The translations under genes and the position numbers were made by a program. Below, piece by piece: positions 3,001-32,165 of a stretch of 34,923 nt of DNA. The notes beneath the pieces are model-generated. The model searched no databases and had not been told where the DNA came from. It saw only the letters and a program-made list of their open reading frames with translations. Positions within the stretch are counted from its first letter, which is position 1, and each line of letters begins with the position of its first letter. Source of the stretch: Bacteroidota bacterium (GTDB taxonomy: Bacteria > Bacteroidota > Rhodothermia > Rhodothermales > JBCCMF01); contig JBCCMF010000005.1 in the NCBI GenBank assembly GCA_039026435.1, positions 1 to 34,923 of the forward strand. Reading direction: 5' to 3'.

Positions 3001-5657
3001 TAGTACAGCGTGTTGGGCGCGAGGCCCATCGCCGTGTAGCTCGTGCCCGTGAGCCCACTCTGGTCGACGGTGGGGGTGCTGTAGTCGGCGTTGGGCGAGA
3101 TCTGGAGGTCGTACGCCGTGGCGAACGGCGTAGCCTGCCACGTCACGGTGGGGGCAACGGCCAAGCCCGTGGTCCCGTCGGTGGGTGCGGTGATGATGGT
3201 GGAGGCGATGCTGTTGGGCGGCTGCAGGTTCGGATACGCCGCCATCATCGAAGCGCCGATGTTGCCGACCTGCGCGAAGTCGCCCACGGCGTAGAGCGTG
3301 CCGCCTGCGAGTGCCATGTCGTTCACCCGTGGGTGCGAGACGACGTCGCGCGGGTCGTTGCGCAGCACTTGGCCGCCTACGTCGCTCCAACTGGAGCCGT
3401 TGAAGTACTTGATGTGGGCCACCTTGGTATCGCCCGTGCTGGCGAAGAGGTCGCCACCGTAGGGTACCAGCAGGTGGACGTTGGTGTCTTCAGGTAGGTT
3501 GCCCACGGCATTCCACCGCGCACCGTCCCAGCGGCCGATGTCGTTCGTGTTGATGCTGCCGCCGCCCCACTTGAGCTGGCTGAACTGCCCGCCGATGTAC
3601 AGGTCGTTGCCTACCACGGCCAGCGTTTCCACGAAATCGGAGAAGCCGTGTACGCCGCTGTTGTTGTTGTCGCTGCCGTAGAGCGCCCAGGCGGTGCCCG
3701 TCCACCGCGCCACGCGCCCGAAGCCCGTCGTCGAGCCGTCGGGGTTGCGCAGGTTGCCGCGCCGACCGCCCACCACGATGGCGCCGCTGGCATCAACGGC
3801 GACCGCCAGCAGCTCGGCCGTGCTGCCGTTGTTGCTGTCGTTGGTGCCGGTCAGGGTGCGCCACTGGCTGGCGGTCGCGTCCCAGACGGCCACCCGCTGC
3901 GTGGGGAGCGTGGCGCCGTCGCTCTGCCGCGCCGTGGTGAAGCTGCCGACGGCCACCAAGTCGCCGTTGGGCAGCACGGTCACATCGTTGACGCGCCCAC
4001 CTAGTCCGTTGCGGCTGCCGTTGCTGCCGTCGCCAAAGGCTTCAAACTGCTGCGTGATCGTGTTCCAGGCCACAATATTGCTGGCCTGGACGGTTTGCTC
4101 GGAGCCTCCGCTCGGATACCTCACGCTCCCGAACTGCCCCGTGATGACGATGCGGTCGCCCCACACGGCCATCGACTCGATGCGCGAGGCGCCGAGCAGA
4201 CTGCCCAGCGCATGCCACTGCTGGTTCACCCGGTCGTAGCGCCCAAAGTTGGCGATGCGCGTGGTGCCGGCATACTCTGCGTAGGCCGCTACGAAGAGGT
4301 CGTTACCACGGGTGGCCATGGCCGCGCCCTGGCGGATGTCGCGGCCTATTTCGAGGCCGTTGTGGGAGGGCGCCGTGCCCAGCACGGTCCACATGGTGTT
4401 GGTGCCATCCCAGCGCAGGATATGGTCGGCCCAGACCTCGGTGCCGTCGGGTTGGAAGCCGGTGACGAAGGCGCCGAACACGATCAGGTCGTCGCCGTCG
4501 GCAAAGCCGCCGCGTGGGGTGAGCTGCGCGTTGATGTCGCGCACGGCCAACCCTGCGGATCCGGGCAGTGCGGCGCCCCACGTCAAAGTGCTAGCCGTCC
4601 AGCGTGCCATCCCGTTGCCTGTGGTGGAGCCGACCGCGATGAGGTCGTTGTTGTTCTGGTCGAGGAAGAAGCCGACCCGCCCGCCGGTGCCGCCGCTCAG
4701 GTTGCTCCACACGCCGTTGTTCCAACCGCCCACGTTGGTGAGGCTGACCGTAGTGCCATCGGCGTTGTAGCCCACGCCAAACGACACGTACACGTACAAC
4801 GTGCCGTCTGCGGCGCGCTTGAGGTCGAGTACTGAGCCTTGCACCCCGTTACGGGTGGCATTGCTGCCGTCGCCGAGCGCCGACAGCGTGCTAGTGGACG
4901 GTGTCCACCGGCCCAGGCGGCTCAGCGACACGGTAGTCCCTGCAGACGGGTAGCCCTCCGTGAAAGCCCCGCCGAAGATGAGGCTCCCATCGGTGTCGAA
5001 GGCCAAGGCGCTGACCACGCTGTTGACGCCGTTGTCGGTGGCGGTGGCGCCCACACCCAAGGCATGCCACGTCTGGTTCGTATAGTCGAACCGCGCCAGG
5101 CGGCTCGCCCGCACCTCAGCCCCGTTGATCCGCACACTCGTGAAGCCACCGCCGATGTAGATCTGGTCGTTGGCGTCGATGGCGACGGCGCTGACCAGGC
5201 TGTTGGCGCCCCACTGGTTGCCTTGGGTCGTCTCTTGCCCCACCGAGCGCCAGCGGCCTGCCGCCTCATCCCAACGTGCCATGCGCCCCGAGTTAAACCA
5301 ACTCCCCGTGGTACTGTAGACGGATCCTACCTGGCCAACGATAACTGGGCTGCCGTCTGACAGGAAGTCGAGGTCGTGTACTTCGCCGATGACACCCAGG
5401 CCCAGGGCTTCCCACGCGTTCGTCGTGGTGTTCCAGCGGGCGATGTTGCGCGTGTTCGGGATGCTGTTGATGGTGAAGAAGCGGCCGCCCACGTAGTAGT
5501 GCCCATCGGGGCCTTGCTTGGCGACGAACACCTCGCCTTGTACGCCGAGCCGGGTGAACTCGGTGGTCCAGGCGTTAGCGTTGGTGTATTGGGCCTGGGC
5601 TGAAGCAGGAAAGATGGCAAGGGCAACGAGCAGAACGGCAAACGCGAAGCGACGCAT
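1..5657 (-). CDS. Very large secreted cell-surface repeat protein. N-terminal signal peptide, then a roughly 900-aa region of degenerate beta-propeller-like repeats, then at least 10 tandem FN3-like modules of about 95 aa. The 3' end (C-terminus) runs past the window edge; more than 1885 aa are visible.
   Basis: ATG at 5657-5655 opens an uninterrupted minus-strand frame that runs out of the window at position 1. The gene is absent from the ORF track, which fits with no in-window stop. The N-terminus MRRFAFAVLLVALAIFPASAQA-QYTN is a classic Sec signal with an AQA cleavage site. The 5657-3000 region has recurring ...G(G/A)xF......ARW(D/N)...W..LG... repeat units. The 3000-1 region repeats the module PTLxSPA(D/N)GAT...TF(T/S)W...A..YQLQVS.D..F......T.YYWRVRA.N..G.S.WS..W.F.T, which is FN3-like. 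A manual translation of 1-122 gives ...MAQNPRIWWTASVGATSYDFQLAIDANFNNLAVDETGTLTG, in frame and with no stops. Confidence 0.8.
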   Translation of the reverse strand, partial: MRRFAFAVLLVALAIFPASAQAQYTNANAWTTEFTRLGVQGEVFVAKQGPDGHYYVGGRFFTINSIPNTRNIARWNTTTNAWEALGLGVIGEVHDLDFLSDGSPVIVGQVGSVYSTTGSWFNSGRMARWDEAAGRWRSVGQETTQGNQWGANSLVSAVAIDANDQIYIGGGFTSVRINGAEVRASRLARFDYTNQTWHALGVGATATDNGVNSVVSALAFDTDGSLIFGGAFTEGYPSAGTTVSLSRLGRWTPSTSTLSALGDGSNATRNGVQGSVLDLKRAADGTLYVYVSFGVGYNADGTTVSLTNVGGWNNGVWSNLSGGTGGRVGFFLDQNNNDLIAVGSTTGNGMARWTASTLTWGAALPGSAGLAVRDINAQLTPRGGFADGDDLIVFGAFVTGFQPDGTEVWADHILRWDGTNTMWTVLGTAPSHNGLEIGRDIRQGAAMATRGNDLFVAAYAEYAGTTRIANFGRYDRVNQQWHALGSLLGASRIESMAVWGDRIVITGQFGSVRYPSGGSEQTVQASNIVAWNTITQQFEAFGDGSNGSRNGLGGRVNDVTVLPNGDLVAVGSFTTARQSDGATLPTQRVAVWDATASQWRTLTGTNDSNNGSTAELLAVAVDASGAIVVGGRRGNLRNPDGSTTGFGRVARWTGTAWALYGSDNNNSGVHGFSDFVETLAVVGNDLYIGGQFSQLKWGGGSINTNDIGRWDGARWNAVGNLPEDTNVHLLVPYGGDLFASTGDTKVAHIKYFNGSSWSDVGGQVLRNDPRDVVSHPRVNDMALAGGTLYAVGDFAQVGNIGASMMAAYPNLQPPNSIASTIITAPTDGTTGLAVAPTVTWQATPFATAYDLQISPNADYSTPTVDQSGLTGTSYTAMGLAPNTLYYLRLRSRNGGTVSNWSAVSFLTTATILPPAPILASPADAATATALRPAFRWNPADQAVTYQLQVASDNGFTTLTLDEAAIADTSRTPDANVAGVSSTGFWRVRGVNNLGVGAWSQVFSFTTAEVDLPVSMSPFPADGTPNWNAGFPWFQWSNASNALNELQVFDAVDMSTPVGTALVMPLFTNFYRIFGAAEVPFTLTTGTTYRWRTRALDDSNPGPPLAGPWSEFFTFTTGGTHPDAPTVAPTLGSPANQAEGVLFQPTLTWNASASADTYEVQISRTSSSFFFDDVGNLVESAEGSGLSHTLATTLDEDTRYYWRVRGKNARGDSPWSTIWRFDTAPFGAPTLLAPANGSTGHPVIDHTLSWQAFDAANHYWVQVSTDPTFATVLAAQQLSFNESDPADTSTPRTYTLTAVLTQGTTYYWRVQARRGTTWGAWSAPWSFVVTTEPAPTETISLLWPEDGNSSGLYFLGTWIPSASFTRYQVQVAPDATFDEENTRTLMSNQPFTGDDFYQSGTHHWRVRVLGPTGFGPWSASRTFMAGGPSNVPIIPTPHGSRSVPINGSVAVRNAVSGEQLDDVTSCTYEIATDDAFSTIVLTQAVAGSADQVLPITGLSLETAYYIRSLCDVSGTPSLYSPTGWFSTGDGIPDAPPTLLTPADEATGISTYPTYTWQPAPEAAQYRLQVSSDAGFGTTVLDHTTTGAPTAFFSTASLDAFTTYHWRVMALGSVGNSAWSTAWSFTTGPPSPATPMLTFPANSATEVLTGLTFTWNAIAGANRFQIQVRTLGQDWEEAILNFTTGVNTPLGNTFTTNTLNVNTTYEWRVRGLIGDPITSSGDWSPVWRFTTYDPPPPAGPPTLLTPSDNATDVSTNPTFTWSAVANAASYQLQVSTNSSFSSGLLTRTPLVPTFSFTGLSASQTYYWRVRAVNPAGTSAYSDAFQFTTNAVAAPLPVAFNYRSQGSLMAQNPRIWWTASVGATSYDFQLAIDANFNNLAVDETGLTG

Positions 5658-5828
5658 AGCGATGGCAAGAGGTTAGCCAGCAGGGAAATGTGAGACCCAA
5701 CCTAGCCGTACCCGCCGCTCTCCCCAATCCCCGGATGGTGGTAATCTGCCAGTGTTGGCGCCGCCTTGCTTATGGTTCGACGAACGGCTATCATCAGTCG
5801 ATCATCCGCTAGCTTAAGATCAGCGTGC

Positions 5829-17104: not shown

Positions 17105-18508
17105 CTAGCCGAGCAGTCTAAAGCCCTCGCCGTACTCGGGGATGACGACGCCCGTGTGACCCTGTGCCTCCAGCGTGCCTTTGAGGGCGTGCTGCCGCTT
17201 GGGGTCGCCGTGGACGAGGAACACCTGCTGGAGCCGCTCGCGGTCCAGTTGATCCACGAAGTGGAGGAGGCCGGGCTCGTCGGCGTGGGCGGAGTAGCTG
17301 TTCATGACGGCCACCTCGGCGCGGAGCGGGTGCGGCTCGCCGAAGATCTTGACCTCGGGGCGTTTTTCGATGAGGCGCCGCCCCAGCGTGTGCTCGGCGC
17401 AGTAGCCCACCATCATCACCGTGTTGCGCGCGTCCTCGATGCTGTTGCGCAGGTGGTGCAGGATGCGCCCCGCCTCGCACATGCCCGAGGCCGAGATAAC
17501 CAACATAGGCACCCGTTGGCCGTTGAGCTGCTTCGAGTCCTCGGCGCGGCGGAGGTACTCCAGCCGCTCGAAGCCAAACGGGTTGAGGTCAGTGCGCATA
17601 TACTCTACGAGCTCGCGGTCGAAGCACTCGGGGTGCGCCAGGTACACGCTCGTGGCGTTGACGGCGAGCGGGCTGTCCACGTAGACGGGGATGGGCGGCA
17701 GCGCGCCCTCGTTCCACAGCTGGTCCAGCGCGTAGACGATCTCCTGCGTACGCCCCACCGCAAACGACGGGATCACCACCTTGCCGCCTCGCTCCGACGT
17801 CCGGCGGATGAGATCGGCCAGCTTCTCCTTGGAGTCGGTGCGCGGCTCGTGCGTCTTGCCGCCGTACGTCGATTCCATGATGAGCCAGTCCACGTCGTCC
17901 ATCGGCTGCGGGTCGCGCAGGATGGGGCGGTCGGGGTTGCCGATGTCGCCGCTGAAGCCCAGCTTGACGGTGCGGCCGTGCTCGTGCACTGTCAGCACCA
18001 TGTGCGCCGAGCCGAGGATGTGCCCGGCATCGCGGTAGACGACCTCCACGCCGTCCACGGGCGAGAACGGCTGGCCGTACGAGACGCCCACGAAGTGCTG
18101 CAAGACGCCCTCGGCATCGGCGGAGTCGTAGAGCGGCGTGACCAGTGGGCGGCCGCGCTTGCGGTTGATCTTGTTGACGAAGCGCGTGTCTTTCTCCTGG
18201 ATGTATGCGCTGTCCATCAGCATCAGCGCGCACAGGCTGTAGGTGGCGTGCGTGGCGTAGATGCGCCCGCGAAAGCCCTCCTTCCACAGCTTCGGCAGCA
18301 GCCCCGCGTGGTCGATGTGGGCGTGCGAGAGCAGCACGGCGTCCAGCGTCTTCGGGTCGAATCCGAAGTGACGGTTTTGCTTCTCGGATTCAGACCTCCG
18401 CCCCTGGAAGAGGCCGCAGTCGAGCAAGAGCGTCTTGCCGTTGTCGAGTTCGACGAGGTGTTTGGAGCCGGTGACGGTGCGTGCGGCACCCCAGAAGGTC
18501 AGGCGCAT
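17105..18508 (-). CDS. MBL-fold metallo-hydrolase of the beta-CASP family (RNA-metabolising type).
   Basis: HxHxDH motif (SHAHIDHAGLLP). N-terminus MRLTFWGAARTVTGSKHLVE. beta-CASP motifs. 467 aa. Confidence 0.85.
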   Translation of the reverse strand: MRLTFWGAARTVTGSKHLVELDNGKTLLLDCGLFQGRRSESEKQNRHFGFDPKTLDAVLLSHAHIDHAGLLPKLWKEGFRGRIYATHATYSLCALMLMDSAYIQEKDTRFVNKINRKRGRPLVTPLYDSADAEGVLQHFVGVSYGQPFSPVDGVEVVYRDAGHILGSAHMVLTVHEHGRTVKLGFSGDIGNPDRPILRDPQPMDDVDWLIMESTYGGKTHEPRTDSKEKLADLIRRTSERGGKVVIPSFAVGRTQEIVYALDQLWNEGALPPIPVYVDSPLAVNATSVYLAHPECFDRELVEYMRTDLNPFGFERLEYLRRAEDSKQLNGQRVPMLVISASGMCEAGRILHHLRNSIEDARNTVMMVGYCAEHTLGRRLIEKRPEVKIFGEPHPLRAEVAVMNSYSAHADEPGLLHFVDQLDRERLQQVFLVHGDPKRQHALKGTLEAQGHTGVVIPEYGEGFRLLG

Positions 18509-18641
18509 GAGCGTGCGGATTGGTGGCGGATGGCAGGCGCAAGGTCGTGTATTTAGACGATGGGCTCAAGCAGTAAAGCACGCGAACGGAAGCAGAGGCC
18601 AAGACGTTAAGCTCGGCACATCTCACCAGAGCCCCGCCGCT

Positions 18642-22567: not shown

Positions 22568-22864
22568 CTAGGCCTCGTCTTCTTCGTCTGAGGCGGGCAG
22601 GATGGGCGTCACCTCGCGTTCCACCACGATGGTCACATCGGTGAAATGGATGGCCAGCGCGCCGAGCGCCGTAAGCACAGGAGCGAAGAACACCGCTGCT
22701 GCTGCACCGCCAATGCCCACGGTCAGCGGGAATTCCAGAATGACGCGCTCGTCGTTTTTGATGATGACGCGCCGCGTCTTGCCTTCGTCGATCAGCTCTT
22801 TGACGCGATCGACCAATTGGTTGCCTTTCAGTTTGAATTCTTCAACGCGGGGATTGGGCTCCAT
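22568..22864 (-). CDS. DUF4342 domain protein (98 aa).
   Basis: MEPNPRVEEFKLKGNQLVDRVKELIDEGKTRRVIIKNDERVILEFPLTVGIGGAAAAVFFAPVLTALGALA matches the DUF4342 architecture: a soluble N-terminal part plus a Gly/Ala-rich hydrophobic segment. Confidence 0.65.
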   Translation of the reverse strand: MEPNPRVEEFKLKGNQLVDRVKELIDEGKTRRVIIKNDERVILEFPLTVGIGGAAAAVFFAPVLTALGALAIHFTDVTIVVEREVTPILPASDEEDEA

Positions 22865-22920: not shown

Positions 22921-23010
22921 GCAAAAAAGTGTCGGGACGCGCTCCGGTTTGCCGAGGCAAAAGGGCGACGGCGCAAGCGATGAGAAAAAAATTCGGCTCG
23001 GGGTTTAAAT
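22921..23010 (+). promoter_or_regulatory. Candidate promoter region of the pilin gene: AT-rich islands (GCAAAAAAGT, GAGAAAAAAATT, GTTTAAAT) in otherwise GC-rich DNA.
   Basis: These are the only A/T tracts in the 320-bp spacer upstream of 23185. No consensus could be assigned. Confidence 0.2.
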
Positions 23011-23184
23011 CCCACATGGGGCTGCCGATACAAAGCCCGGGACTGAACGCCAATCCGCTTGTCCAACATACTATGGCGAGCAACGGCACCCACCAACGGA
23101 GGAGGCGTGTGCTGCGGGGGCAGCCACCCTCCACCGACGCTACTTACTCGCTCTACCCAACACAACTCAAAGGAGGCTCCAGAA

Positions 23185-23637
23185 ATGGGTCAACAACAAC
23201 TTCTTCTCCTCGTGCTCGGCATGGTGATCGTCGGTATTGCCGTCGTCGCGGGGATCCAGGCCTTCACCGAAGGCAAGGCCAAAGCAGAAACTGATGCAGC
23301 CGTGGCCGATGCCATGCGCGTCATCTCGGACCTGCAGGCATGGTACCTGAAGCCCGCAGCCTTTGGCGGCGGCAGCGAAACGGCGGCCAACTGGGCTAAT
23401 GTTAAGCTGGGCTCGATCGGCCTCAACCCTGCCGATGATGTAGGCACTGCCAACTCGTACTACGAGACGCTCAACGGGTGCTATGCCCTGACGGCCGCAA
23501 GCGGCAAGGTGACGGTTGAGATCAAGCGCCGGGATGCCAGCGCTGAGGCTGGCAAAGAGTGCGACGGCGCTAAGTATGCCGACGCTGAAATCACCAGCGC
23601 AAGCCCAACCAGCGGCGTGACCTGGACGTACCAGTAA
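23185..23637 (+). CDS. Type IV pilin-like protein (150 aa) with a non-canonical N-terminal signal.
   Basis: A strong Shine-Dalgarno sequence (AAAGGAGG) sits 8 nt upstream of ATG 23185. The N-terminus MGQQQLLLLVLGMVIVGIAVVAGIQAF is a single hydrophobic helix that continues into an amphipathic helix (TEGKAKAETDAAVADAMRVISDLQAWY), like the pilin alpha1 spine. A C-terminal Cys pair spaced 26 aa apart (NGC...KEC) looks like a D-region disulfide. The gene is the first in a pilC-pilB-pilT-pilMN-pilOP cluster. It lacks the G/F-T-L-I-E motif and Glu5. Confidence 0.55.
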   Translation: MGQQQLLLLVLGMVIVGIAVVAGIQAFTEGKAKAETDAAVADAMRVISDLQAWYLKPAAFGGGSETAANWANVKLGSIGLNPADDVGTANSYYETLNGCYALTAASGKVTVEIKRRDASAEAGKECDGAKYADAEITSASPTSGVTWTYQ

Positions 23638-23670
23638 GCCGAGCATCTTTAGCTCATCCAAGCTCGCAAC

Positions 23671-23700
23671 GGGCGGGGCTGGCACCAGCTGGCTCCGCCC
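23671..23700 (+). terminator. GC-rich hairpin immediately downstream of the pilin stop, likely an intrinsic terminator or attenuator.
   Basis: GGGCGGGGCTGGCAC-CAGCTGGCTCCGCCC forms a stem of roughly 13 bp with a few G-U pairs. It begins 34 nt after the TAA and is followed by the T-containing TTGTGCGTTTGGCG. A direct repeat of TGTGCGTTTGGCG occurs twice (23702-23714 and 23718-23730). Confidence 0.45.
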
Positions 23701-23836
23701 TTGTGCGTTTGGCGTCCTGTGCGTTTGGCGCCCTATGTGGCCTCCGGGTAGGCAAAGAGGCCGCCGTTAAATCCACGGCCAACCTGCCGATACTTACCGT
23801 AACCGCATACTCTATCGACCTCCCCGCCAGACTCTC

Positions 23837-25201
23837 ATGGCCGTCAAAGAATTCAAATTTGCAGGCGTTGGCCGCAACGCCCAGCCCGTACAGGGGACGG
23901 TGTTTGCGTCGTCGAAGCGGTCGGCGGAGAAGAAGGTAACGGCACTGGCCGAAAAGCACGGCTTCCGCACGCAGGGGCTGATGGAACGCCGGGCCTTCAT
24001 GTACAAGGTCAAGCACCCCAACGGCACCATCATCAAAGGGGAGCAGAAGGCCTACACCGAAGACGAGATCCGCAAGGCGCTCTCGCGGATGGGGCTAGAG
24101 GTCCTCAAGGTCGAGAAGAAGCTCTTCGACCTGCCGATGAAGCCCCCCAGCCAGGACATCATCATGTTCGTGCGGCTGGCCTCCAACCTGCTGCGCGAAA
24201 AGCTGCCTTTCGATGAGATCCTCACGCTCCTCTCGGGCGATGTCAACTCCAAGCCGCTCAAGCAGACGCTGCGCGACCTCAACGGCGATCTGAAAGGCGG
24301 TATGGATGCGCAGAGCGCGTTCATGAAGCACCAGCACACGCTGGGCAAGTTCACGGCCTACATGCTGGGCATCGCCTCGCAGTCGGGCAACATGTCGGAG
24401 ATCTACGAGGCTACGGCCCGCTTCCTGGAGCGCCAGAACGAGTTCAAGAAGAGCGTGCGCAGCGCCATGATCACGCCCATGATCACGATTGTGTTGCTGC
24501 TGGCGGTGATCCTGTGGTACATCTGGGACATCTTCCCGAAGACAGCTGGCCTGCTAGAGGACGTAGGGATGCCGCTGCCGCCGATGACCGCAAGCACGAT
24601 GGAGTTTTCGTACTGGCTCGATGCGAATTGGTGGTGGCTCTTCACCCTGTTTGCTGTGCTGGTGGGCGGCGTCATCTGGTACGTGCGCACGCCCAAGGGG
24701 CAGTTCCGATGGCATAAGCTCATGATCTCGATGCCCATCATCGGCGCGCTGCTGCACAAGCTGAACATCGAGATTTTCTGCCGCGTGTTCTCCGTGCTCT
24801 ACTCGGGCAGTGGCGAGAACATTCAGGTGATGCGCATTGCCTCGGAGGCGTGCGGCAACGCCTACATGGAGCACCAAATCAAAACCGTCACCATCCCGAT
24901 GATGGTGGGGCAGGGCGCCGGGCTGGTGCAGTCGATGGAGGCCAGCGACGTGTTCACGCCGATGGCTATCGCTCGCTTCCGCAGCGGCGCCGAGACGGGG
25001 AGCGTCCGCAGCAGCGCGCAGCAGATGGCCGACTACTACGAGAGCGAGACGAAGCTCAAGCTCAAGAGCGTGGTCGAGTCCATCCAGACGGGCGTCTCCG
25101 TCTTCATCACCGCCGCCATCATCTTCCTGACGCTGGTCTCAACCGAGGTGGCGATGGTGCAGCCCTCGGCCGAAGACATGATGAACCAGCGCGTCAAGTA
25201 A
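23837..25201 (+). CDS. pilC: Type IV pilus / T2SS platform protein (PilC/GspF family).
   Basis: N-terminal FKFAGVGRNAQPVQGTVFASSKRSAEKKVTALAEKHGF matches the PilC start pattern. Two T2SSF-type cytoplasmic domains are separated by TM segments (ITPMITIVLLLAVILWYIW; WWWLFTLFAVLVGGVIWYV; GVSVFITAAIIFLTLV). Confidence 0.85.
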   Translation: MAVKEFKFAGVGRNAQPVQGTVFASSKRSAEKKVTALAEKHGFRTQGLMERRAFMYKVKHPNGTIIKGEQKAYTEDEIRKALSRMGLEVLKVEKKLFDLPMKPPSQDIIMFVRLASNLLREKLPFDEILTLLSGDVNSKPLKQTLRDLNGDLKGGMDAQSAFMKHQHTLGKFTAYMLGIASQSGNMSEIYEATARFLERQNEFKKSVRSAMITPMITIVLLLAVILWYIWDIFPKTAGLLEDVGMPLPPMTASTMEFSYWLDANWWWLFTLFAVLVGGVIWYVRTPKGQFRWHKLMISMPIIGALLHKLNIEIFCRVFSVLYSGSGENIQVMRIASEACGNAYMEHQIKTVTIPMMVGQGAGLVQSMEASDVFTPMAIARFRSGAETGSVRSSAQQMADYYESETKLKLKSVVESIQTGVSVFITAAIIFLTLVSTEVAMVQPSAEDMMNQRVK

Positions 25202-25244: not shown

Positions 25245-27740
25245 GTGCTCGTCATGGTGCTTTCCTCTGCGTATCCCGGCGCCGCAGGCGGCCTCGATCT
25301 CAGCATGGAGGGCGCGCTCCCGGCACCGTCGCCGATGGAGCAGGCGATGCAGGACGAGGTCTTGCAGGCGCTCATCGGCGAGGAGCAGATCGGCTTGCCG
25401 CACGCCGTCAGGGCCGTCAAGGCGCGCAACGCACACCCTGCCCGCGCTGAGCCGTGGCGCTTCCTCGTGGGGCAAGAGGGCGTGGACCTGGACGCCGTAG
25501 CGCAGACCGTGGCCACCGTAGCGGGCTACCCCGTGGTGGATCTGTCGAAGACGAACCCCGTCATGGTCCAAGCCATCTTCGCCCTCTTCCCGGACGAACT
25601 GGCGGACCGGCTGCGCGGCCTGGGGCTTGTGCCGCTGGGCTTAGACGAGGACGAGCACGGCCAGCGGTTGCGGCTTGTGTGCCCTGACCCGACCAACGAC
25701 GCCGTGCAAGCGCTGCTCGCCTCCATCGCGGTGCCGCTGAGCGTGGGCTTTGCGCCCGCCTCGGCGGTAGGCGTGCTCTTGGAGGCGGTGGAGACGCTCC
25801 GCCAAGCCCGTAGCGAGGCTCCGGCGCCCGTGGCGCCACCCCGCGAGAGCAGCGACGAAGCCACCGACCTGCCAGCTGCCGAAGCACCAGCCGCCGACCC
25901 GCCTCCCGTGCCCCAGGGCGATACGCCCGTCGTGTTCGTCCAGCCCGTGCGCGACCGCGTGGTGAAGGCGATGCTGCGCCACGAAACGGTGGCCCCAGCC
26001 CTGGTGAAGCAGGCGCAAGCGTGGCAGGCCGAGGAGGGCGTCAAAGAGCCGCTGTGGCGCACGCTGACGCGCCTGCCGGGGCCGCATCAGGAAGCGGTGT
26101 TTGCCCAGGCGGCCCAGACCTACGCCTTCCGCGCCGCCGACATCAACGGCGACAAGCCCGACCTGGAGTTTGTGCGCGGCGTCATGCAGGCCTTCGAGGA
26201 GGACTATCGCGAGGCGCTGCTGCAGCAAAACGTGGTCGTGTTTGACCTGCGCGTGGAGCCGGAGACGGGGGCTCACCGCACGGTGTTCATCACGCACGAT
26301 CCCACACGGCCCGAGATCCTACCCCTGCTGCGGCGCCTCAAGCTGGAACGCTACGAGCTGCAGTACGCCGCGCCCAGCGCTGTGCGCCAGGTCATCGACC
26401 GGGCGTTCCCGGCCGAAAACGAGTTCCTGGCCCGCATCGAAGACGACGCGCCCGCCCTGGACATGGGCACCGTGGGCCTCGACGACGAAGAGAGCAGCCT
26501 GATCGACCGCGAGGCGCTGGAGGCCGAGCTGAACCGCTCCAGCCTGATCAACCTGTTCGAAGGCGCGCTCGTGGAGGCCGTCCGCCGTGGCGCCTCCGAC
26601 ATCCACATCTACCCGAATGCCAGGAAAGAAATCGAAATCCACTTCCGCATCGACGGGCGGCTAAAGCTGTGGATGACCGAGCGCCGCATCCATCCCGAGG
26701 CGATGCTCGCCGTCATCAAGGACAACGCGATGAACGTGGACCGCTTCGAGCGCGAGATGGCGCAGGACGGCTTCATCCAACGCGATGTGGACGGCGCGCT
26801 GATCCGCTACCGCGTCTCGGTGTTGCCCATCGCCAACGCCCAGCAGGAGCTGCGGTCGGAGAGCGTCGTCATCCGCGTCATCGACGACCGCAAGGTGGTC
26901 ACCGACCTGAGCAAGCTGGGCCTGCTGCCTTCGGCGCTGGAGCGCTTCGACCGCGCCATCCGGCAGCCGCACGGCATGGTCATCCTCACCGGGCCTACGG
27001 GCTCGGGCAAGAGCACTACACTTGTGGCCGCGCTGCATCAGGTGGTCGATCCGGAGGTGAACGTGCTGACGGTAGAAGACCCCGTCGAGTACATCATCCC
27101 CGGCGTGCGACAGATCAAGCTGGGCACCAAGCTCAACCTGGAGGGGGCGCTGCGGGCCATCCTGCGCCACGACCCCGACATCGTCATGGTTGGCGAGATG
27201 CGCGACCGGGCGACGGCCGAGATGGGCATCAAGCTGGCCAACACGGGCCACCTCACCTTCTCCACGCTGCACACCAACGACGCGCCCAGCGCCGTGACGC
27301 GCCTCTACAAGATGGGCATCGAGCCGTTCTTGATCGCCTACGCCATCAACCTCGTGGTGGCGCAGCGCCTCATCCGCACGCTCTGCCCGGATTGTAAGCA
27401 GCACGACCCCAACCCCGACCCGTTGCTGCTGGAGCGCATGGGCTTCACGAAGGATGAGATCGCCACGACCACGTTCTACCGCCCGAGCACCGACAAGGCG
27501 TGCCCCACGTGCCGAGGCATCGGCTACAAGGGCCGCCGGGCCATCTGCGAGGCGCTCTACTTCTCGCGTGCCATCCGCCACACAATTGCGCAGGCACAGG
27601 GCAACCTCGACGAAGGCGTCGTGCGCGACCTCGCCGTCAAGGAAGGCATGCTGACGCTGCTCGACTCGGCGCGTGAATACGTGAAGATGGGGCTGACGGA
27701 TGTGGATGAGATGGTGCGCGTGACGGCGACGGAGGACTAG
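25245..27740 (+). CDS. pilB: PilB/GspE-family pilus assembly ATPase, enlarged to 831 aa, with two tandem N-terminal T2SS-E N-domains (MshEN-like) joined by a Pro/Ala-rich linker.
   Basis: Walker A GPTGSGKST. Asp box and His box present. Tetracysteine motif CPDCKQ...CPTCRGIGYKGR. Two GSPII_E_N-like regions at about aa 40-190 and 250-385. GTG start at 25245. Alternative in-frame ATG starts at 25254 and 25335 (MEQAMQDEVLQALIGE...). Confidence 0.85.
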   Translation: MLVMVLSSAYPGAAGGLDLSMEGALPAPSPMEQAMQDEVLQALIGEEQIGLPHAVRAVKARNAHPARAEPWRFLVGQEGVDLDAVAQTVATVAGYPVVDLSKTNPVMVQAIFALFPDELADRLRGLGLVPLGLDEDEHGQRLRLVCPDPTNDAVQALLASIAVPLSVGFAPASAVGVLLEAVETLRQARSEAPAPVAPPRESSDEATDLPAAEAPAADPPPVPQGDTPVVFVQPVRDRVVKAMLRHETVAPALVKQAQAWQAEEGVKEPLWRTLTRLPGPHQEAVFAQAAQTYAFRAADINGDKPDLEFVRGVMQAFEEDYREALLQQNVVVFDLRVEPETGAHRTVFITHDPTRPEILPLLRRLKLERYELQYAAPSAVRQVIDRAFPAENEFLARIEDDAPALDMGTVGLDDEESSLIDREALEAELNRSSLINLFEGALVEAVRRGASDIHIYPNARKEIEIHFRIDGRLKLWMTERRIHPEAMLAVIKDNAMNVDRFEREMAQDGFIQRDVDGALIRYRVSVLPIANAQQELRSESVVIRVIDDRKVVTDLSKLGLLPSALERFDRAIRQPHGMVILTGPTGSGKSTTLVAALHQVVDPEVNVLTVEDPVEYIIPGVRQIKLGTKLNLEGALRAILRHDPDIVMVGEMRDRATAEMGIKLANTGHLTFSTLHTNDAPSAVTRLYKMGIEPFLIAYAINLVVAQRLIRTLCPDCKQHDPNPDPLLLERMGFTKDEIATTTFYRPSTDKACPTCRGIGYKGRRAICEALYFSRAIRHTIAQAQGNLDEGVVRDLAVKEGMLTLLDSAREYVKMGLTDVDEMVRVTATED

Positions 27741-27840: not shown

Positions 27841-29292
27841 GTGAGCTACTCGTTCGAGAACTTGTTTTCGCCTTCGGGGCCGTCACAGCCCGAGCCGCAG
27901 CGCAACACACAGGATGTGCCGTCGCGGCCCGTGTGGGAGGGCGCCAAGGCGGCACCCGCCACGAAGACGGCTGCCGTCACCCCGCCTCCGGCATGGGGGC
28001 AGCCCAACACGGCCCCTAAAAAGCCCAAGGCCAAAGCGGCACGCGCGCACCCAACGCTCGGAAGCGGCACCGTACCGCCTGTGCCCAAGGTGGCCAAGGC
28101 GATCCTCGGCCGCCTGCCCGATGCCGCCGCAGGCCTGACGCGGCTGCGCTTCATCGCTGAGCAGGTGGAACGCCTGCGCGACGAAGACCGCCACCAGATC
28201 CAGGTCGTGGTGGGCGCCTGGGCTCGCCGGATGGTAGAGCTGGGCGCCTCAGACATCGCCGCAGGAGGCTCCGGTGCCAGCGGCATGGTGTGGTACCGTG
28301 TGGATGGCAAAAACACGCCGCGTGAAGAGATGGGGCGCTACTCCGACTACGAGGCCGATCTGCTGCTGCTGTCCCAGCTGGGGCCGGAGCAGGTAGAGTG
28401 CCTCTTCGACGAATACTCCATCGACTTTTCCTACCGCGTCGAGCTCGTGGGCAAGGACGGCAGGCCGCGTCGCTTTCGTGCCACCATCTACTTCGACTAC
28501 GACCACCTGGCCCTCAACATGCGCGCCATCACCGACGAGGTGCGGCCGCTTGACTCGTTGGGCTTCCATCCGCTCGTCAAACGCCGGCTCATGTTCAGCC
28601 ACGAACGCGACGGCCTGACGCTGGTCACAGGCGTGACGGGCTCCGGCAAGAGCTCAACGCTCGACGCCATCATCGACGCCAACAACAAAGACTTCTACGG
28701 CAACATTGTCATTATTGGCAAGCCCGTGGAATTCGTGCACAACACCAAGCGCAGCATCGTGCGCCACCGCGAGGTGGGCAAGGATGTGCGCAGCTTTAAG
28801 GAGGGTATCGTGCAGGCGCTCCGCCAAGACCCCGACATCGTGGTCATCGGTGAGATGCGCGACCCCGAGACGATCTCATCCGCCCTAGAGATCACCGACT
28901 CGGGCCACAAGGTGTTCTCCACGCTTCACACCTCCTCGGCCGTGGAGAGCATCGACCGCATCATGGGTGAGTACCCGCCCGAGGAGCAAGACCGCGTGCG
29001 CAACCGCCTGGCGGACACCCTGCGCTGTGTGATCTCGCAGAAGCTGCCGCCCAAAATTGATGGCGGGCGCATCCTGTGCAAGGAAATCCTCTGGATGACG
29101 TCCTCGGCACGCGCCGCCATCAAAAACGGCAACTCGGGCGAGATCTACCAGATGATGTGGGAGGGCTCTAACGAGGGCATGGTCACGCTTGAGCAAGACC
29201 TGGCCCGGCTCGTCCGCGAGCGCCTCATCACACCCGAAGTGGCGTACGATTACGCCAACAACAAACGCCGCCTGCGCCGCATCCTCGGATAG
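27841..29292 (+). CDS. pilT: PilT-family pilus retraction ATPase with an N-terminal low-complexity extension of about 110 aa.
   Basis: Walker A VTGVTGSGKSST. Motifs ALRQDPDIVVIGEMRD and GHKVFSTLHTSSA. C-terminal AAIKNGNSGEIYQMM (PilT AIRNLIRE-like). The ORF opens at GTG 27841. An in-frame GTG at 28165 (VERLRDEDRHQIQVVVGAW...) would give a canonical protein of about 376 aa. The extension has GC3 of roughly 81%, which suggests it is translated. Confidence 0.85.
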   Translation: MSYSFENLFSPSGPSQPEPQRNTQDVPSRPVWEGAKAAPATKTAAVTPPPAWGQPNTAPKKPKAKAARAHPTLGSGTVPPVPKVAKAILGRLPDAAAGLTRLRFIAEQVERLRDEDRHQIQVVVGAWARRMVELGASDIAAGGSGASGMVWYRVDGKNTPREEMGRYSDYEADLLLLSQLGPEQVECLFDEYSIDFSYRVELVGKDGRPRRFRATIYFDYDHLALNMRAITDEVRPLDSLGFHPLVKRRLMFSHERDGLTLVTGVTGSGKSSTLDAIIDANNKDFYGNIVIIGKPVEFVHNTKRSIVRHREVGKDVRSFKEGIVQALRQDPDIVVIGEMRDPETISSALEITDSGHKVFSTLHTSSAVESIDRIMGEYPPEEQDRVRNRLADTLRCVISQKLPPKIDGGRILCKEILWMTSSARAAIKNGNSGEIYQMMWEGSNEGMVTLEQDLARLVRERLITPEVAYDYANNKRRLRRILG

Positions 29293-29324: not shown

Positions 29325-31139
29325 ATGAAACGCAAGCGCATCAACGAAAACGTGCTCGGAGTGATGGCCGACGACCGGACGGTCCACGCCATCCTCGTGC
29401 AGCAAGGGCCAAACGGCCCCGAGATCAAGCGCCGCTTCTCGCGGGCGCGCGCCAGCCAGTATGCCGACGCCGTCGTGCCGGACCTGGGCTTTGATCCGGC
29501 CATGGAACAGGCCTCGTTCGGAGGCGACGACTTCAACATCCAGTTTGGCGATGCAGGCGCACAGACCAACTTCCTCAAGGGCGAGTTTGGCGACTTGGCC
29601 GCTAAGGCCGACACGTCGAAGAAAGCCCCCGAGGCCGTCATCGAGCCGTTTGCGCTGGAGTTGGGTGATATTCTGGCAGAGTGCGCCGACACGGGCTTCG
29701 CCAAGCCTCGCGTGGCCGTGTGCCTGCACGATGGAGACACGGCGTACCACGAGCTGATCTACAGTGAGCGCGAGGATGCCAAGCCCAAGAAGGGCAAGAA
29801 GAAAAGCGCGAGTACCTCTGCCGATGGCCGCCCGAATACGCTGCAGCTGATCGCGCTGATGCAGGCGCTGCACAACGTGAAGGTGGGCGAGGCCGAAGCC
29901 GCGTTCTTGCCTATGGGTGTGACGCCGAGCGGCGCCTACCAGTACCTGGGGCTGGCTCCCGCCACCACCGATCCGGCCACGGCCACGCTCAAGCAGATGT
30001 ACAAGCAGAAGGGCAAGTACGTGCCCGATGCCCGCTTGGTGGATGCCGAGGTGCCGCTGTACCTGGGGCTGGCTCGCATGACGTTTGGCCTCAACGCCGA
30101 GCCCGCGCAGCAGAAGCACACGCTCATCGTCCGCACCAGTGCCAACAACACGCTTGTGCTCTTCATGCAGGGCGACACGCTGATCGAGTCCGAGAGCCTG
30201 CAGTCGCTTACCTCGTACGACGCGCCCGAGACGATCTGTAGCCGCGTGCTGCTGCAGCAGGACGAGCTGGGCCTGACGGACATTGACCACGTGCTGTTGC
30301 TCAACCGCGAGCGCGAGGACGACATGGCGGAGAGCTTCTCGATGTTCTTCCCCGCAGCCCGCGTGGTGCTCATGCGCCAGGCGCTGCCGCTGAAGAACGC
30401 CGCCGCCGCCGACTCGCCCGGGCTGGTGCAGGCCGCCCTCGCCGCGCTCCGCCTTGTTGGGGGGGAAGCCGTGATGGAGAGCTTCGACGGGCACAACATG
30501 CTGCCCAAGAGCCTCCGCAAAATCCGCATTGAGCTGCCCTTCTCGTGGCACACGCTGGTGCTCTCGCTGATGATCTTCTGCACCGTGTTCTTCTTCACGT
30601 GGCGCTACGTCACGATGGATCAACGGATCACGAACAAGAAAGCCCTCATCACGCTGCAAGACCCCACGACGAACCTGGATGTAGATGAGCAGGTGCTGCA
30701 AGCGCGCATCGACAGCCTGCAGAGCACGTACGTGCGCTACGTGCAGGCGCTCAACGTCATCGACTCGCTGCTGGTGGGCAGCGACCGCTGGAGCCGCACG
30801 CTGGAGACCATCACGCGCGAGACCGCTGCCACGCCCGGCATCTGGGTCGATTCCATGTCGCCGCTAGGCAACAACGTGGTCGTCGTAGGCAATGCGCGAG
30901 GGCGCGACAACGTGGTCGCCTTCGCCGAGCGCACCGAGGCGGTCATCGAGACGCTGACCTTTGAAGAGATCCGCGACTGGCCCGTGTACAATTTCCGCAT
31001 GCGCGTCCCCTCGCCCGAGGTGCTGCCCGAGGCGGCCGTCTTCCTCCGCGAGCAGGTGGAGCAAGCCGAGGTGGCGGCCACGAGTGCATCCGCATCTGCT
31101 GAACCCGTTGCTGCGCTGAACGCGGGCGCGACGCCCTAA
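29325..31139 (+). CDS. Predicted PilM-PilN fusion protein (604 aa): a divergent actin-like PilM-type cytoplasmic domain, a single TM helix, and a PilN-like coiled-coil/periplasmic domain.
   Basis: N-terminus NVLGVMADDRTVHAILVQQG has PilM-like initial beta strands. A second actin-like block is HTLIVRTSANNTLVLFMQGDTLIE. The TM segment WHTLVLSLMIFCTVFFFTWRYV is followed by a coiled-coil (DEQVLQARIDSLQSTYVRYVQALN) and a PilN-like beta domain. The gene lies between pilT and a pilO-like gene. Confidence 0.55.
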   Translation: MKRKRINENVLGVMADDRTVHAILVQQGPNGPEIKRRFSRARASQYADAVVPDLGFDPAMEQASFGGDDFNIQFGDAGAQTNFLKGEFGDLAAKADTSKKAPEAVIEPFALELGDILAECADTGFAKPRVAVCLHDGDTAYHELIYSEREDAKPKKGKKKSASTSADGRPNTLQLIALMQALHNVKVGEAEAAFLPMGVTPSGAYQYLGLAPATTDPATATLKQMYKQKGKYVPDARLVDAEVPLYLGLARMTFGLNAEPAQQKHTLIVRTSANNTLVLFMQGDTLIESESLQSLTSYDAPETICSRVLLQQDELGLTDIDHVLLLNREREDDMAESFSMFFPAARVVLMRQALPLKNAAAADSPGLVQAALAALRLVGGEAVMESFDGHNMLPKSLRKIRIELPFSWHTLVLSLMIFCTVFFFTWRYVTMDQRITNKKALITLQDPTTNLDVDEQVLQARIDSLQSTYVRYVQALNVIDSLLVGSDRWSRTLETITRETAATPGIWVDSMSPLGNNVVVVGNARGRDNVVAFAERTEAVIETLTFEEIRDWPVYNFRMRVPSPEVLPEAAVFLREQVEQAEVAATSASASAEPVAALNAGATP

Positions 31140-31181: not shown

Positions 31182-32165
31182 ATGTCTGGCATCCTTCAAA
31201 ATATTCTGGTCTTGACCTTCTGCTGGCTCGCCGCCACTGGCGCTGGCGTGTACCTGACCTTCTTCAACCAGCCCAAGGAAATCGAGCGGCTGGAGAAGAT
31301 TGAGCAGGTCAACGAGATGAAGCAGGCCGAGTTTAGAAACTTGGTCTCTGAAGAGGCCGTCTCGTCGCAGCGTGCCAACGAGGTGACGCGCCGCTGGAAC
31401 GCCCGCTACAAGCTGGTGCCGCCCACACTCAGCAGCGCCGCCGTCGTCGGTATCCTCAACGCATTGACCCGGGAAGGCTTCGACGAGTTCAACATCGTTT
31501 ACGATGGCCAAAAGTCCGACCCGACCATCAGCAGCCATAGGTTCAGTGTCAGCGGGCAGGGCTACTACACGCACCTGTACCAAGTGATTTGGAACCTGGA
31601 GAACGGCCGCGAACTGTACCGCGTGCAGCGCCTCGACCTGACCAACCTCAACCTGGTGAAGGTGAACCGCCAGACGCAACGGGAAGAGCTGAAGGTGATG
31701 GTGGAGTTCACGTTCGAGGTGGTTGCGTACTTTGCTGGTACGGAAGGCCTCAGCGCTGACGATGCTGGGCCGGGCGTGCTCGAAAACGACATCCAGGTTG
31801 CGGCCTTACCGGAGTTGCCCGAAGGCGTGCTCCCCGCCAAGCAGCCCAACGTAAATCCCTTCTACCCCGGTATTCTCGAAACGCTGCCGCCCAACAGCAA
31901 GGGCCTGATCGATGTGGAAGACGCCTCGCTTATCTCCGTCACAGGCGAGCGTGCCTACTTTGACGTGGGCGGCGAGTTTAAGAGCGTAGCCCTGGGCGGC
32001 AACGTATACCTGGGCACCGTTACCGCCGTCGATCCGCACAACGGCCGCGTCAGGGTGCGCCTCAACAAAGGCGGCATCATCGACCACGTCGAAGTCCGAA
32101 TCGAGGAAGGCGAAGCCCAGCGCCCCAGGGGCGGCAGCTACACCACGCAAGGCGTCGGCTGGTAG
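31182..32165 (+). CDS. Predicted PilO-PilP fusion (327 aa): TM helix, coiled-coil and PilO-like domain, then a PilP-like beta domain after a flexible linker.
   Basis: TM segment ILQNILVLTFCWLAATGAGVYLTFF. Coiled-coil EIERLEKIEQVNEMKQAEFRNL. PilO-like core (SGQGYYTHLYQVIWNLENG...LDLTNLN). Downstream, NPFYPG...LIDVEDASLISVTGERAYFDVGGEFKSVALGGNVYLGTVTAVDPHNGRVRVRL resembles the PilP/GspC homology region (DPF-P motif plus beta sandwich). Confidence 0.55.
   Translation: MSGILQNILVLTFCWLAATGAGVYLTFFNQPKEIERLEKIEQVNEMKQAEFRNLVSEEAVSSQRANEVTRRWNARYKLVPPTLSSAAVVGILNALTREGFDEFNIVYDGQKSDPTISSHRFSVSGQGYYTHLYQVIWNLENGRELYRVQRLDLTNLNLVKVNRQTQREELKVMVEFTFEVVAYFAGTEGLSADDAGPGVLENDIQVAALPELPEGVLPAKQPNVNPFYPGILETLPPNSKGLIDVEDASLISVTGERAYFDVGGEFKSVALGGNVYLGTVTAVDPHNGRVRVRLNKGGIIDHVEVRIEEGEAQRPRGGSYTTQGVGW

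Follow-up and report, generated by a model that had tools for sequence, protein, structure and literature searches.

Background and locus

To our knowledge, every bacterial type IV pilin described so far carries a cleavable leader that ends in Gly and, almost always, a Glu at position 5 of the mature chain (Glu5). The leader and Glu5 underlie current models of how subunits are extracted from the membrane, how they dock and how charge is neutralised in the filament core, and the prepilin peptidase counts among the four components considered universal in type IV filaments. Class III leaders of bacterial type IV pilins span 6–26 residues, and the pair formed by Glu5 and the N-terminal amine is needed for homopolymerisation, which classical pilin mutants in Glu5 cannot achieve (PMC4471445). 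The gene considered here occupies positions 23185–23637 of a 34,923-nt stretch of contig JBCCMF010000005.1 (assembly GCA_039026435.1) from a Bacteroidota bacterium of the Rhodothermales, a stretch called the window below; it heads a cluster of type IV pilus (T4P) genes and encodes a protein that starts with MGQQQ. Such proteins depart in two respects from every bacterial pilin whose description is known to us: the part ahead of the helix is reduced to Met-Gly, and the helix starts without Glu5 or any other charge.

Analysis of the window and of related loci supports the view that MGQQQ pilins form a distinct and widespread class of type IV pilins that spans several phyla, has no Glu5 and carries a leader of two residues or none at all. 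The protein is very probably the pilin of the PilB/PilC/PilT machine. The complete statement, namely that a divergent type IVa-like pilus has this protein as its major subunit, which matures without a leader, has about equal chances of being right or wrong.

A start shared by a large family

The gene and its ribosome-binding site are located as follows.

23185..23637, + strand: MGQQQ-type pilin gene, putative major pilin of 150 residues; ATG at 23185, stop at 23635-23637, protein beginning MGQQQLLLLVLGMVIVGIAVVAGIQAFTEGKAKAE
23171..23176, + strand: Shine–Dalgarno sequence AGGAGG, 8 nt 5′ of the pilin ATG

The open reading frame (ORF) and its pilin size were confirmed, as were the lack of a G-F-T-L-I-E motif and of Glu5 and the two-residue MG start that an earlier note, made from the window alone, had pointed out; the first acidic residue is E29. 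Residues 6–24 are the most hydrophobic 19-mer of the protein (mean hydropathy 3.04), which has the ~21-residue hydrophobic N-terminal half of a long α1 helix. The same note had remarked on the only strong Shine–Dalgarno sequence of the window, and AGGAGG is indeed found at the pilin gene alone among the 11 gene starts checked, none being present at the 10 others (pilC, pilB, pilT, pilMN, the pilO-like gene, DUF4342, E1, mgtE, ksgA and DUF6847). Gene starts devoid of a Shine–Dalgarno sequence are usual in bacteria of this group. An (A/C)AGGAGG(C/T)TC-like sequence precedes many orthologues of the pilin gene.

The extent of the family was determined with a HMMER profile searched against 1.84 billion representative proteins (50% identity representatives). 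It comprises 1422 representatives at 50% identity, 650 of them with E ≤ 1e-10, and 1449 clusters at 90% identity. Among the best 150 of the 1422 representatives, 138 start exactly with MGQQQ and eight more with a close variant (MGQAQ in three, and MGSQQ, MGQHQ, MGQNQ, MGNQQ and VGQQQ); profile position 1 is aligned to residue 1 in 146 of them, and Gly2 is likewise kept in 146, across several phyla, while Q3 and Q4 vary occasionally. Residues 1–24 are free of Asp, Glu, Lys and Arg in all 119 unique members derived from the loci surveyed below, and mean pairwise identity amounts to 86% over residues 1–63 versus 30% over the remainder; a conserved N-terminal part followed by a variable remainder is the classic pattern of a major pilin. 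Relatives occur in several phyla, their carriers being diderm bacteria of the Fibrobacteres–Chlorobi–Bacteroidetes (FCB) group; Melioribacteraceae carry MGQQQ genes, and the nearest genome in the GTDB set is that of Bacteroidota bacterium P01_H01_bin.41. Members are annotated as hypothetical proteins (PGAP) and, in a few cases, as ‘pseudopilin PulG’ (JGI). No paper describing the class was found in the literature searched, where the string MGQQQL was not met either, and no Pfam family or NCBIfam model was found that describes it; the part of the supplements of Denise et al. (2019) that was covered holds no entry for Rhodothermus, Salinibacter, Melioribacter or Ignavibacterium.

Start codons were surveyed in 122 family genes from 84 sequences (the window and 83 related loci, together 1.35 Mb, with ~10 kb around the clusters). 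All 122 genes start with ATG; in 108 of them there is no in-frame ATG, GTG or TTG between the nearest upstream stop and this ATG, and in 60 an in-frame stop lies at most five codons upstream. Translation starting further upstream, with a normal leader present, would make the odd N-terminus an annotation artefact, and the window taken by itself leaves room for it, the pilin frame being open for 46 codons 5′ of the ATG with in-frame TTG and GTG codons. However, the spacing of the Shine–Dalgarno sequence suits the ATG at 23185, and the survey rules out a start codon further upstream at the level of the family; with profile position 1 falling on residue 1 in nearly all of the best representatives, an artefact is extremely improbable. 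On the survey and the profile alignments, the two-residue MG start characterises the family itself and does not stem from faulty gene calling.

The C-terminal Cys-X26-Cys motif reported in the earlier note is present in the window protein (C99 and C126), and both residues are invariant in a 41-member alignment of Rhodothermales-type sequences, but the observation does not generalise: of the 119 unique family members, 44 contain two Cys and 15 a single one, whereas 58 are devoid of Cys. A Cys pair is found in part of the family only.

Predicted fold and register with known pilins

An AlphaFold2 model of the window pilin was built on the 41-member alignment (predicted local distance difference test, pLDDT, 93; predicted template modelling score, pTM, 0.78). 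It consists of a helix spanning residues 3–55, in line with the hydrophobic N-terminal helix read earlier from residues 6–24, and of a four-stranded antiparallel sheet. The predicted structure is thus the lollipop fold of pilins, with α1 on a four- to five-stranded antiparallel sheet, so that the structure prediction suggested in the earlier note as a check speaks for a pilin.

Comparison of the family profile with PDB sequences gave a weak match to the helix of Geobacter PilA (E 0.8). Together with the conserved G17 and a Q/N/S/T/P residue at position 25, this match sets a register that pairs G17 with G14, position 25 with P22 and F27 with F24. In it, Q3/Q4 stand at the place of the canonical Phe1, and L7/L8 at that of Glu5. 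The invariant Gln triplet occupies the place where Phe1-Thr2 normally lie, the equivalent of Glu at mature position 5 is Leu7 or Leu8, and instead of a leader of 6–26 hydrophilic residues only Met-Gly stands ahead of the Gln-rich start of the helix.

Several results weigh against the assignment as a pilin. The Geobacter match provides no firm sequence link; Pfam (E ≤ 0.1) and NCBIfam (E ≤ 1) returned 0 families for the window protein, with PF07963 (N_methyl), PF00114 and TIGR02532 all silent; hhalign produced no alignment of the family profile with PAK pilin, whose sequence was entered by hand; Foldseek found nothing significant for the model in the PDB; and the evidence for a pilin fold rests on prediction. 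A new pilin class, one of the options raised in the earlier note, gains support from the silence of the Pfam and NCBIfam pilin models, from the MGQQQ start and acid-free residues 1–24 common to a large multi-phylum family, and from the position at the head of a pil operon in the large majority of loci.

The pil operon and its machinery

The place of the gene at the head of a T4P cluster, already claimed in the earlier note, is borne out by the five genes that follow it on the same strand.

23837..25201, + strand: pilC, inner-membrane platform, GspF/PilC family (PF00482, E 1.8e-30)
25245..27740, + strand: pilB, assembly ATPase whose long N-terminal extension includes an MshEN-like domain, start uncertain (PF00437, E 3.1e-97; MshEN, E 3e-5; TIGR02538, E 2.4e-111)
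27841..29292, + strand: pilT-family retraction ATPase (TIGR01420 pilT_fam, E 9.8e-90, 301 bits versus a cut-off of 319; PF00437)
29325..31139, + strand: pilM-pilN fusion, 604 residues (AAF730_00845), from an AlphaFold model and PilN-annotated homologues
31182..32165, + strand: pilO-like gene, 327 residues, N-terminal transmembrane helix and coiled coil, from position and architecture

The cluster thus encodes PilB, PilC and PilT of a type IVa pilus (T4aP) machine, in an order kept in >50 loci, as well as an alignment subcomplex of PilM, PilN and a PilO-like protein. The product of pilC matches the PilC/GspF NCBIfam models with E values of 1e-43 to 1e-47, the scores staying below the equivalog cut-offs. 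In the AlphaFold model, the 604-residue protein combines an actin-like domain, a transmembrane helix, a coiled coil and a ferredoxin-like domain, and its homologues are annotated as ‘PilN domain-containing’ (PF05137); on this model it is a PilM–PilN fusion. The 327-residue protein is taken as PilO-like by position and architecture only: its place directly after pilMN is kept in 25 loci, and the Kryptonium orthologue has a very weak match to PF04350 (PilO, E 0.13). A phmmer search of both proteins against the PDB gave no match. PilB is unusually long (831 residues as listed and up to ~1100 in loci L001 and L085), its N-terminal extension being of low complexity, and PilT has an N-terminal extension of ~120 residues rich in Pro, Ala and Lys.

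Over the 84 sequences, the pilin gene has pilC adjacent to it in 64, pilB in 56 and pilT in 50, and orphan pilin copies are seen in ~13 loci. The order pilin(s)-pilC-pilB-pilT-pilMN-pilO-like is common to six lineages, with loci from Rhodothermales, Salinibacteraceae, Rubricoccaceae, Balneolales, Ignavibacteria/Melioribacteraceae, Calditrichota, KSB1 and Ca. Kryptonium, many loci having two or three tandem MGQQQ genes. Immediately after the pilO-like gene, a PF00263 secretin gene is found in seven tested loci (L042, L066, L081, L024, L052, L082 and L032), which belong to Melioribacteraceae, Ignavibacteriales, KSB1, Balneola and two metagenome-assembled genomes of Bacteroidetes; these secretins have 411–426 residues, and 618 in Balneola, and the L042 copy (17324-18559) is followed by a CheW gene. 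No PilQ secretin was found in the window, where mgtE, on the opposite strand, follows the cluster in the place of the secretin gene, so a secretin would have to be encoded elsewhere.

Maturation of the pilin

Provided that the protein is a pilin, the balance tips slightly towards a system that works without a dedicated prepilin peptidase of the A24 family. No such peptidase is encoded in the window, and none was detected in the 1.35 Mb of the 84 loci, whether by tblastn with PilD (E ≤ 10) or through the GxGDxK motif. The query was Pseudomonas aeruginosa PilD, entered by hand and matching both A24 Pfam domains; the matches that it returned are MATE transporters. Several A24-free operons hold all the other core T4aP genes, including pilQ. 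A canonical pilin ORF with the motif G/FTLIE (a slash marks the cleavage site) is also missing from the 1.35 Mb around the 84 loci, which lends no local support to the fallback offered in the earlier note, that of a canonical pilin encoded elsewhere. In the paper on the complete genome of Melioribacter roseus, both the pilin gene and pilD are reported as not found.

In some lineages, three small genes separate pilB from pilT (L053 13711-16333, L001 17305-19692, L010, L020, L048, L051, L055, L057 and L067); the window has none there. Their products have a hydrophobic N-terminal helix preceded by just 1–4 residues. ORF-a starts with M[SP]QTL or, in Kryptonia and Calditrichota, with MxTGQTLIT; ORF-b starts with MxxxxD, the Asp lying five residues past the initiator Met; and ORF-c starts with MG[KR]. 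At the position where Gly(-1) would be expected, several of these products have Ser, Pro or the initiator Met. The ORF-b profile gave a non-significant match to the Thermus pilin TTHA1219 in the PDB (E 2.1), with the Asp of ORF-b aligned to the Glu of TTHA1219, and Pfam gave no useful match for the small ORFs. Their starts suggest that they are probably minor pilins, also devoid of normal leaders.

A wider proposal, held with a little less than even confidence, is that the prepilin peptidase has been given up in the T4P lineage of Rhodothermota, Balneolota, Ignavibacteriota, Calditrichota, KSB1 and Kryptonia, that all pilins of this lineage, major and minor, are essentially leaderless and that a Gln-rich uncharged N-terminus replaces the Phe1/Glu5 pair. 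The MGQQQ protein would be inserted in the inner membrane, its globular domain facing the periplasm, and its N-terminus would serve in its unprocessed form or once methionine aminopeptidase has taken off Met. PilB and PilC would extract it from the membrane and polymerise it through its hydrophobic helix, and PilT would retract the filament. The Gln triplet may take over, by hydrogen bonding, the polar contacts of the N-terminal amine and Glu5, with a neutral N-terminus; the neutrality could perhaps come from a retained formyl-Met, or from pyroglutamate if Met-Gly is removed.

Other observations weigh against leaderless maturation. The absence of A24 rests on ~10 kb around the clusters and on one genome paper, and the best match among the putative minor pilins is just E 2.1. 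The N-terminus offers no positive charge that would enforce the N-in orientation. The invariance of Gly2 recalls Gly(-1) of prepilin-peptidase substrates, and leaders ending in Gly right before QQQ occur in two rare members, namely P0384 (MPNPSSSGFG/QQQ; L086 228-683) and P0353 (MSKYYEDKSHGLG/QQQ; L087 84-572), with 10 and 13 residues, respectively. In both, the upstream ATG has a Shine–Dalgarno sequence of its own, and the sequence next to the Gly of P0384 allows no start codon. The two leaders may be remnants of a normal class III leader or a return to one. The MxTG/QTLIT start of ORF-a in Kryptonia and Calditrichota resembles a short class III signal of four residues.

Met-Gly could instead be a minimal class III leader, cut after Gly2 by an A24-type peptidase encoded elsewhere. 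Such an account keeps the pilin and the machine; it lets the mature pilin begin with Gln, possibly N-methylated or converted to pyroglutamate, so that the N-terminus would be uncharged and Glu5 unnecessary. The conservation of Gly2 next to occasionally varying Q3 and Q4, the longer leaders of P0384 and P0353 and the start of ORF-a all speak for it, and pilD is unlinked to the pil operon in many bacteria. Moreover, some systems tolerate shortening of the leader, Gly(-1) alone being critical and Glu5 dispensable for cleavage; however, no two-residue leader has been described for a prepilin, the range given in the review being the 6–26 residues quoted above (PMC4471445). Further points against it are the lack of an A24 gene in all 84 neighbourhoods, even in those with every other core T4aP gene, the failure to find pilD in the complete M. 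roseus genome, and the residues other than Gly at the would-be -1 position of the putative minor pilins from the same operons. Cleavage after Gly2 (G/Q), given a pilin, is a possibility somewhat short of probable, and the full account with its peptidase encoded elsewhere is, if anything, more doubtful. Whether the leaderless route or a cut at G/Q applies, the mature N-terminus is Gln-rich and acid-free, and the pair of Glu5 and the N-terminal amine must be replaced.

Regulatory elements, neighbouring genes and surface exposure

Regulatory elements of the cluster and the divergent neighbour of the pilin gene are listed below.

23005..23031, + strand: motif TTAAATCC-N9-CTGCCGATAC, copy 1, promoter-like or regulatory, 180 nt 5′ of the pilin ATG
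23767..23793, + strand: motif TTAAATCC-N9-CTGCCGATAC, copy 2, 70 nt 5′ of pilC, kept in the nearest relative L004
27767..27793, + strand: degenerate copy 3 of the motif, three mismatches, 74 nt 5′ of pilT
23658..23712, + strand: GC-rich hairpin (core 23671-23700) followed by UUGUGCGUUU, a weak U-tract, between the pilin gene and pilC
22568..22864, - strand: DUF4342 gene, divergent neighbour of the pilin gene (PF14242, E 3.8e-26)

The 27-nt motif occurs in three copies in the window versus 0 expected by chance, and related TTAA...YTGCCGATA sites lie 5′ of pil genes in L004, L026, L045 and L082; it looks like a shared promoter or regulator site that is not of the sigma-70 type. The hairpin after the pilin gene has a folding energy of -41 kcal/mol (z -5.5), and 0 of 200 shuffled sequences fold as well. 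It is likely an attenuator-, terminator- or mRNA-stabilising element that would give an excess of pilin over the machinery, by analogy with major-pilin genes, whose expression exceeds that of the machinery genes. A gene of the Wzy_C (O-antigen ligase) family lies directly 3′ of the pilin gene in 10 of the 84 sequences, namely L001 (10557-12074), L002, L003, L012, L014, L036, L038, L058, L060 and L062, and is absent from the window. Wzy_C is a domain of pilin O-glycosylases, and pilA-tfpO in Pseudomonas has the same arrangement. The variable globular part, the tandem copies, the adjacent Wzy_C gene, the hairpin and the motif all fit a surface-exposed major pilin.

A protein with a pilin fold need not build a surface pilus; it could be an anchored periplasmic protein or form a short pseudopilus for secretion or DNA uptake, as in type II secretion systems (T2SSs) or competence. 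The lack of a secretin gene in the window cluster, with mgtE next on the other strand, the naming of a few members as ‘pseudopilin PulG’, the failure of classical Glu5 mutants to homopolymerise (PMC4471445) and the clustering of the so-called T2SS of Bacteroidetes with T4aP (PMC6668835) are compatible with such a role. It is nevertheless unlikely: the operon encodes a PilT-family ATPase, PilM–PilN and a PilO-like protein, and pilQ follows in other lineages; surface-exposed major pilins typically show the variable globular domain, the tandem paralogues and the neighbouring glycosylase-like Wzy_C gene seen in the family; and there is no match to PF08334 (T2SS_G), in contrast with the Cytophaga system, which has a PF08334 pseudopilin and an A24 peptidase. 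A T2SS major pseudopilin of the GspG type would have a PF08334 domain and work with a GspC/L/M machine devoid of PilT; identity with it was rejected on the lack of PF08334 and the presence of PilT and PilM–PilN.

The pairing of the DUF4342 gene with the pilin gene is found in 36 of the 84 sequences, all of the Rhodothermales type; this gene may or may not belong to the pilus system. Away from the cluster, an ORF of >1890 residues with a signal-peptide-like start (MRRFAFAVLLVALAIFPASAQAQ) covers positions 3-5672 of the window on the - strand and runs off its left end. It probably encodes a giant secreted or surface protein, and the + strand ORFs listed within 3-5672, which have no Pfam match, are probably shadows of it.

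Comparison with described systems

The major pilins of T4aP, such as P. aeruginosa PilA, Neisseria PilE and Thermus thermophilus PilA4, resemble MGQQQ pilins in size (~150 residues), in helix positions (G17 as G14, position 25 as P22) and in the contrast between conserved N-terminus and variable C-terminus. They also share the place of the first gene beside pilB/pilC with pilT and pilMNO(Q), sometimes with a Wzy_C gene next to it, as in pilA-tfpO. MGQQQ pilins differ from them in having a Gln triplet and in lacking the 6–26-residue leader, Phe1, Glu5 and any charge in residues 1–24, as well as a match to the N_methyl, pilin and TIGR02532 models and a pilD gene in the neighbourhood.

In archaeal type IV pilins and archaellins, Glu5 is often absent and class III signals are more variable (PMC4471445), as in MGQQQ pilins; they keep, however, a leader cut by PibD, FlaK or EppA, whereas the MGQQQ machine is of the bacterial T4aP type (PilT, PilM–PilN and secretin) and belongs to diderms of the FCB group. 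Minor pilins and pseudopilins of the GspK/PilX type also lack Glu5, but they are tip subunits of low abundance whose leader is normal and ends in Gly(-1). The window pilin, in contrast, is encoded by the first gene of its operon, with the only strong Shine–Dalgarno sequence among the starts checked, and belongs to a family with tandem copies and no acidic residue in residues 1–24.

Within the FCB group, the Bacteroidetes ‘T2SS’/T4aP-like system consists of divergent type IV filament components that cluster with T4aP (PMC6668835; PMC5553014). Its representative in Cytophaga hutchinsonii (CHU_3191-3201) has a PF08334 pseudopilin, minor pseudopilins with the usual helix and an A24 gene, CHU_3197, inside the cluster; the window system has none of these, and identity of the two is ruled out by the PF08334 and A24 genes of Cytophaga. 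The Tad/Flp (type IVc) pilins are likewise short, with a class III signal and a related ATPase and platform. They differ in their size of 50–80 residues, long leaders, G/xxxxEY motif and need for TadV/CpaA, while MGQQQ pilins lack this motif, have a complete globular domain and go with PilT and PilMN.

Significance of the MGQQQ class

The result is a family of >1000 putative pilins that have neither a normal leader nor Glu5 and yet head otherwise complete pilB/C/T/M/N/O(Q) operons. The standard means of detecting pilins (PilFind, the N_methyl and TIGR02532 models and the MacSyFinder pilin profiles) are blind to these pilins of several phyla. With the MGQQQ family, nature offers a test of the roles for which the leader, the peptidase and Glu5 are truly required. 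Since there are culturable carriers, namely Rhodothermus marinus, Gracilimonas tropica, Fodinibius salsisoli and probably Melioribacter roseus, this question is directly testable.

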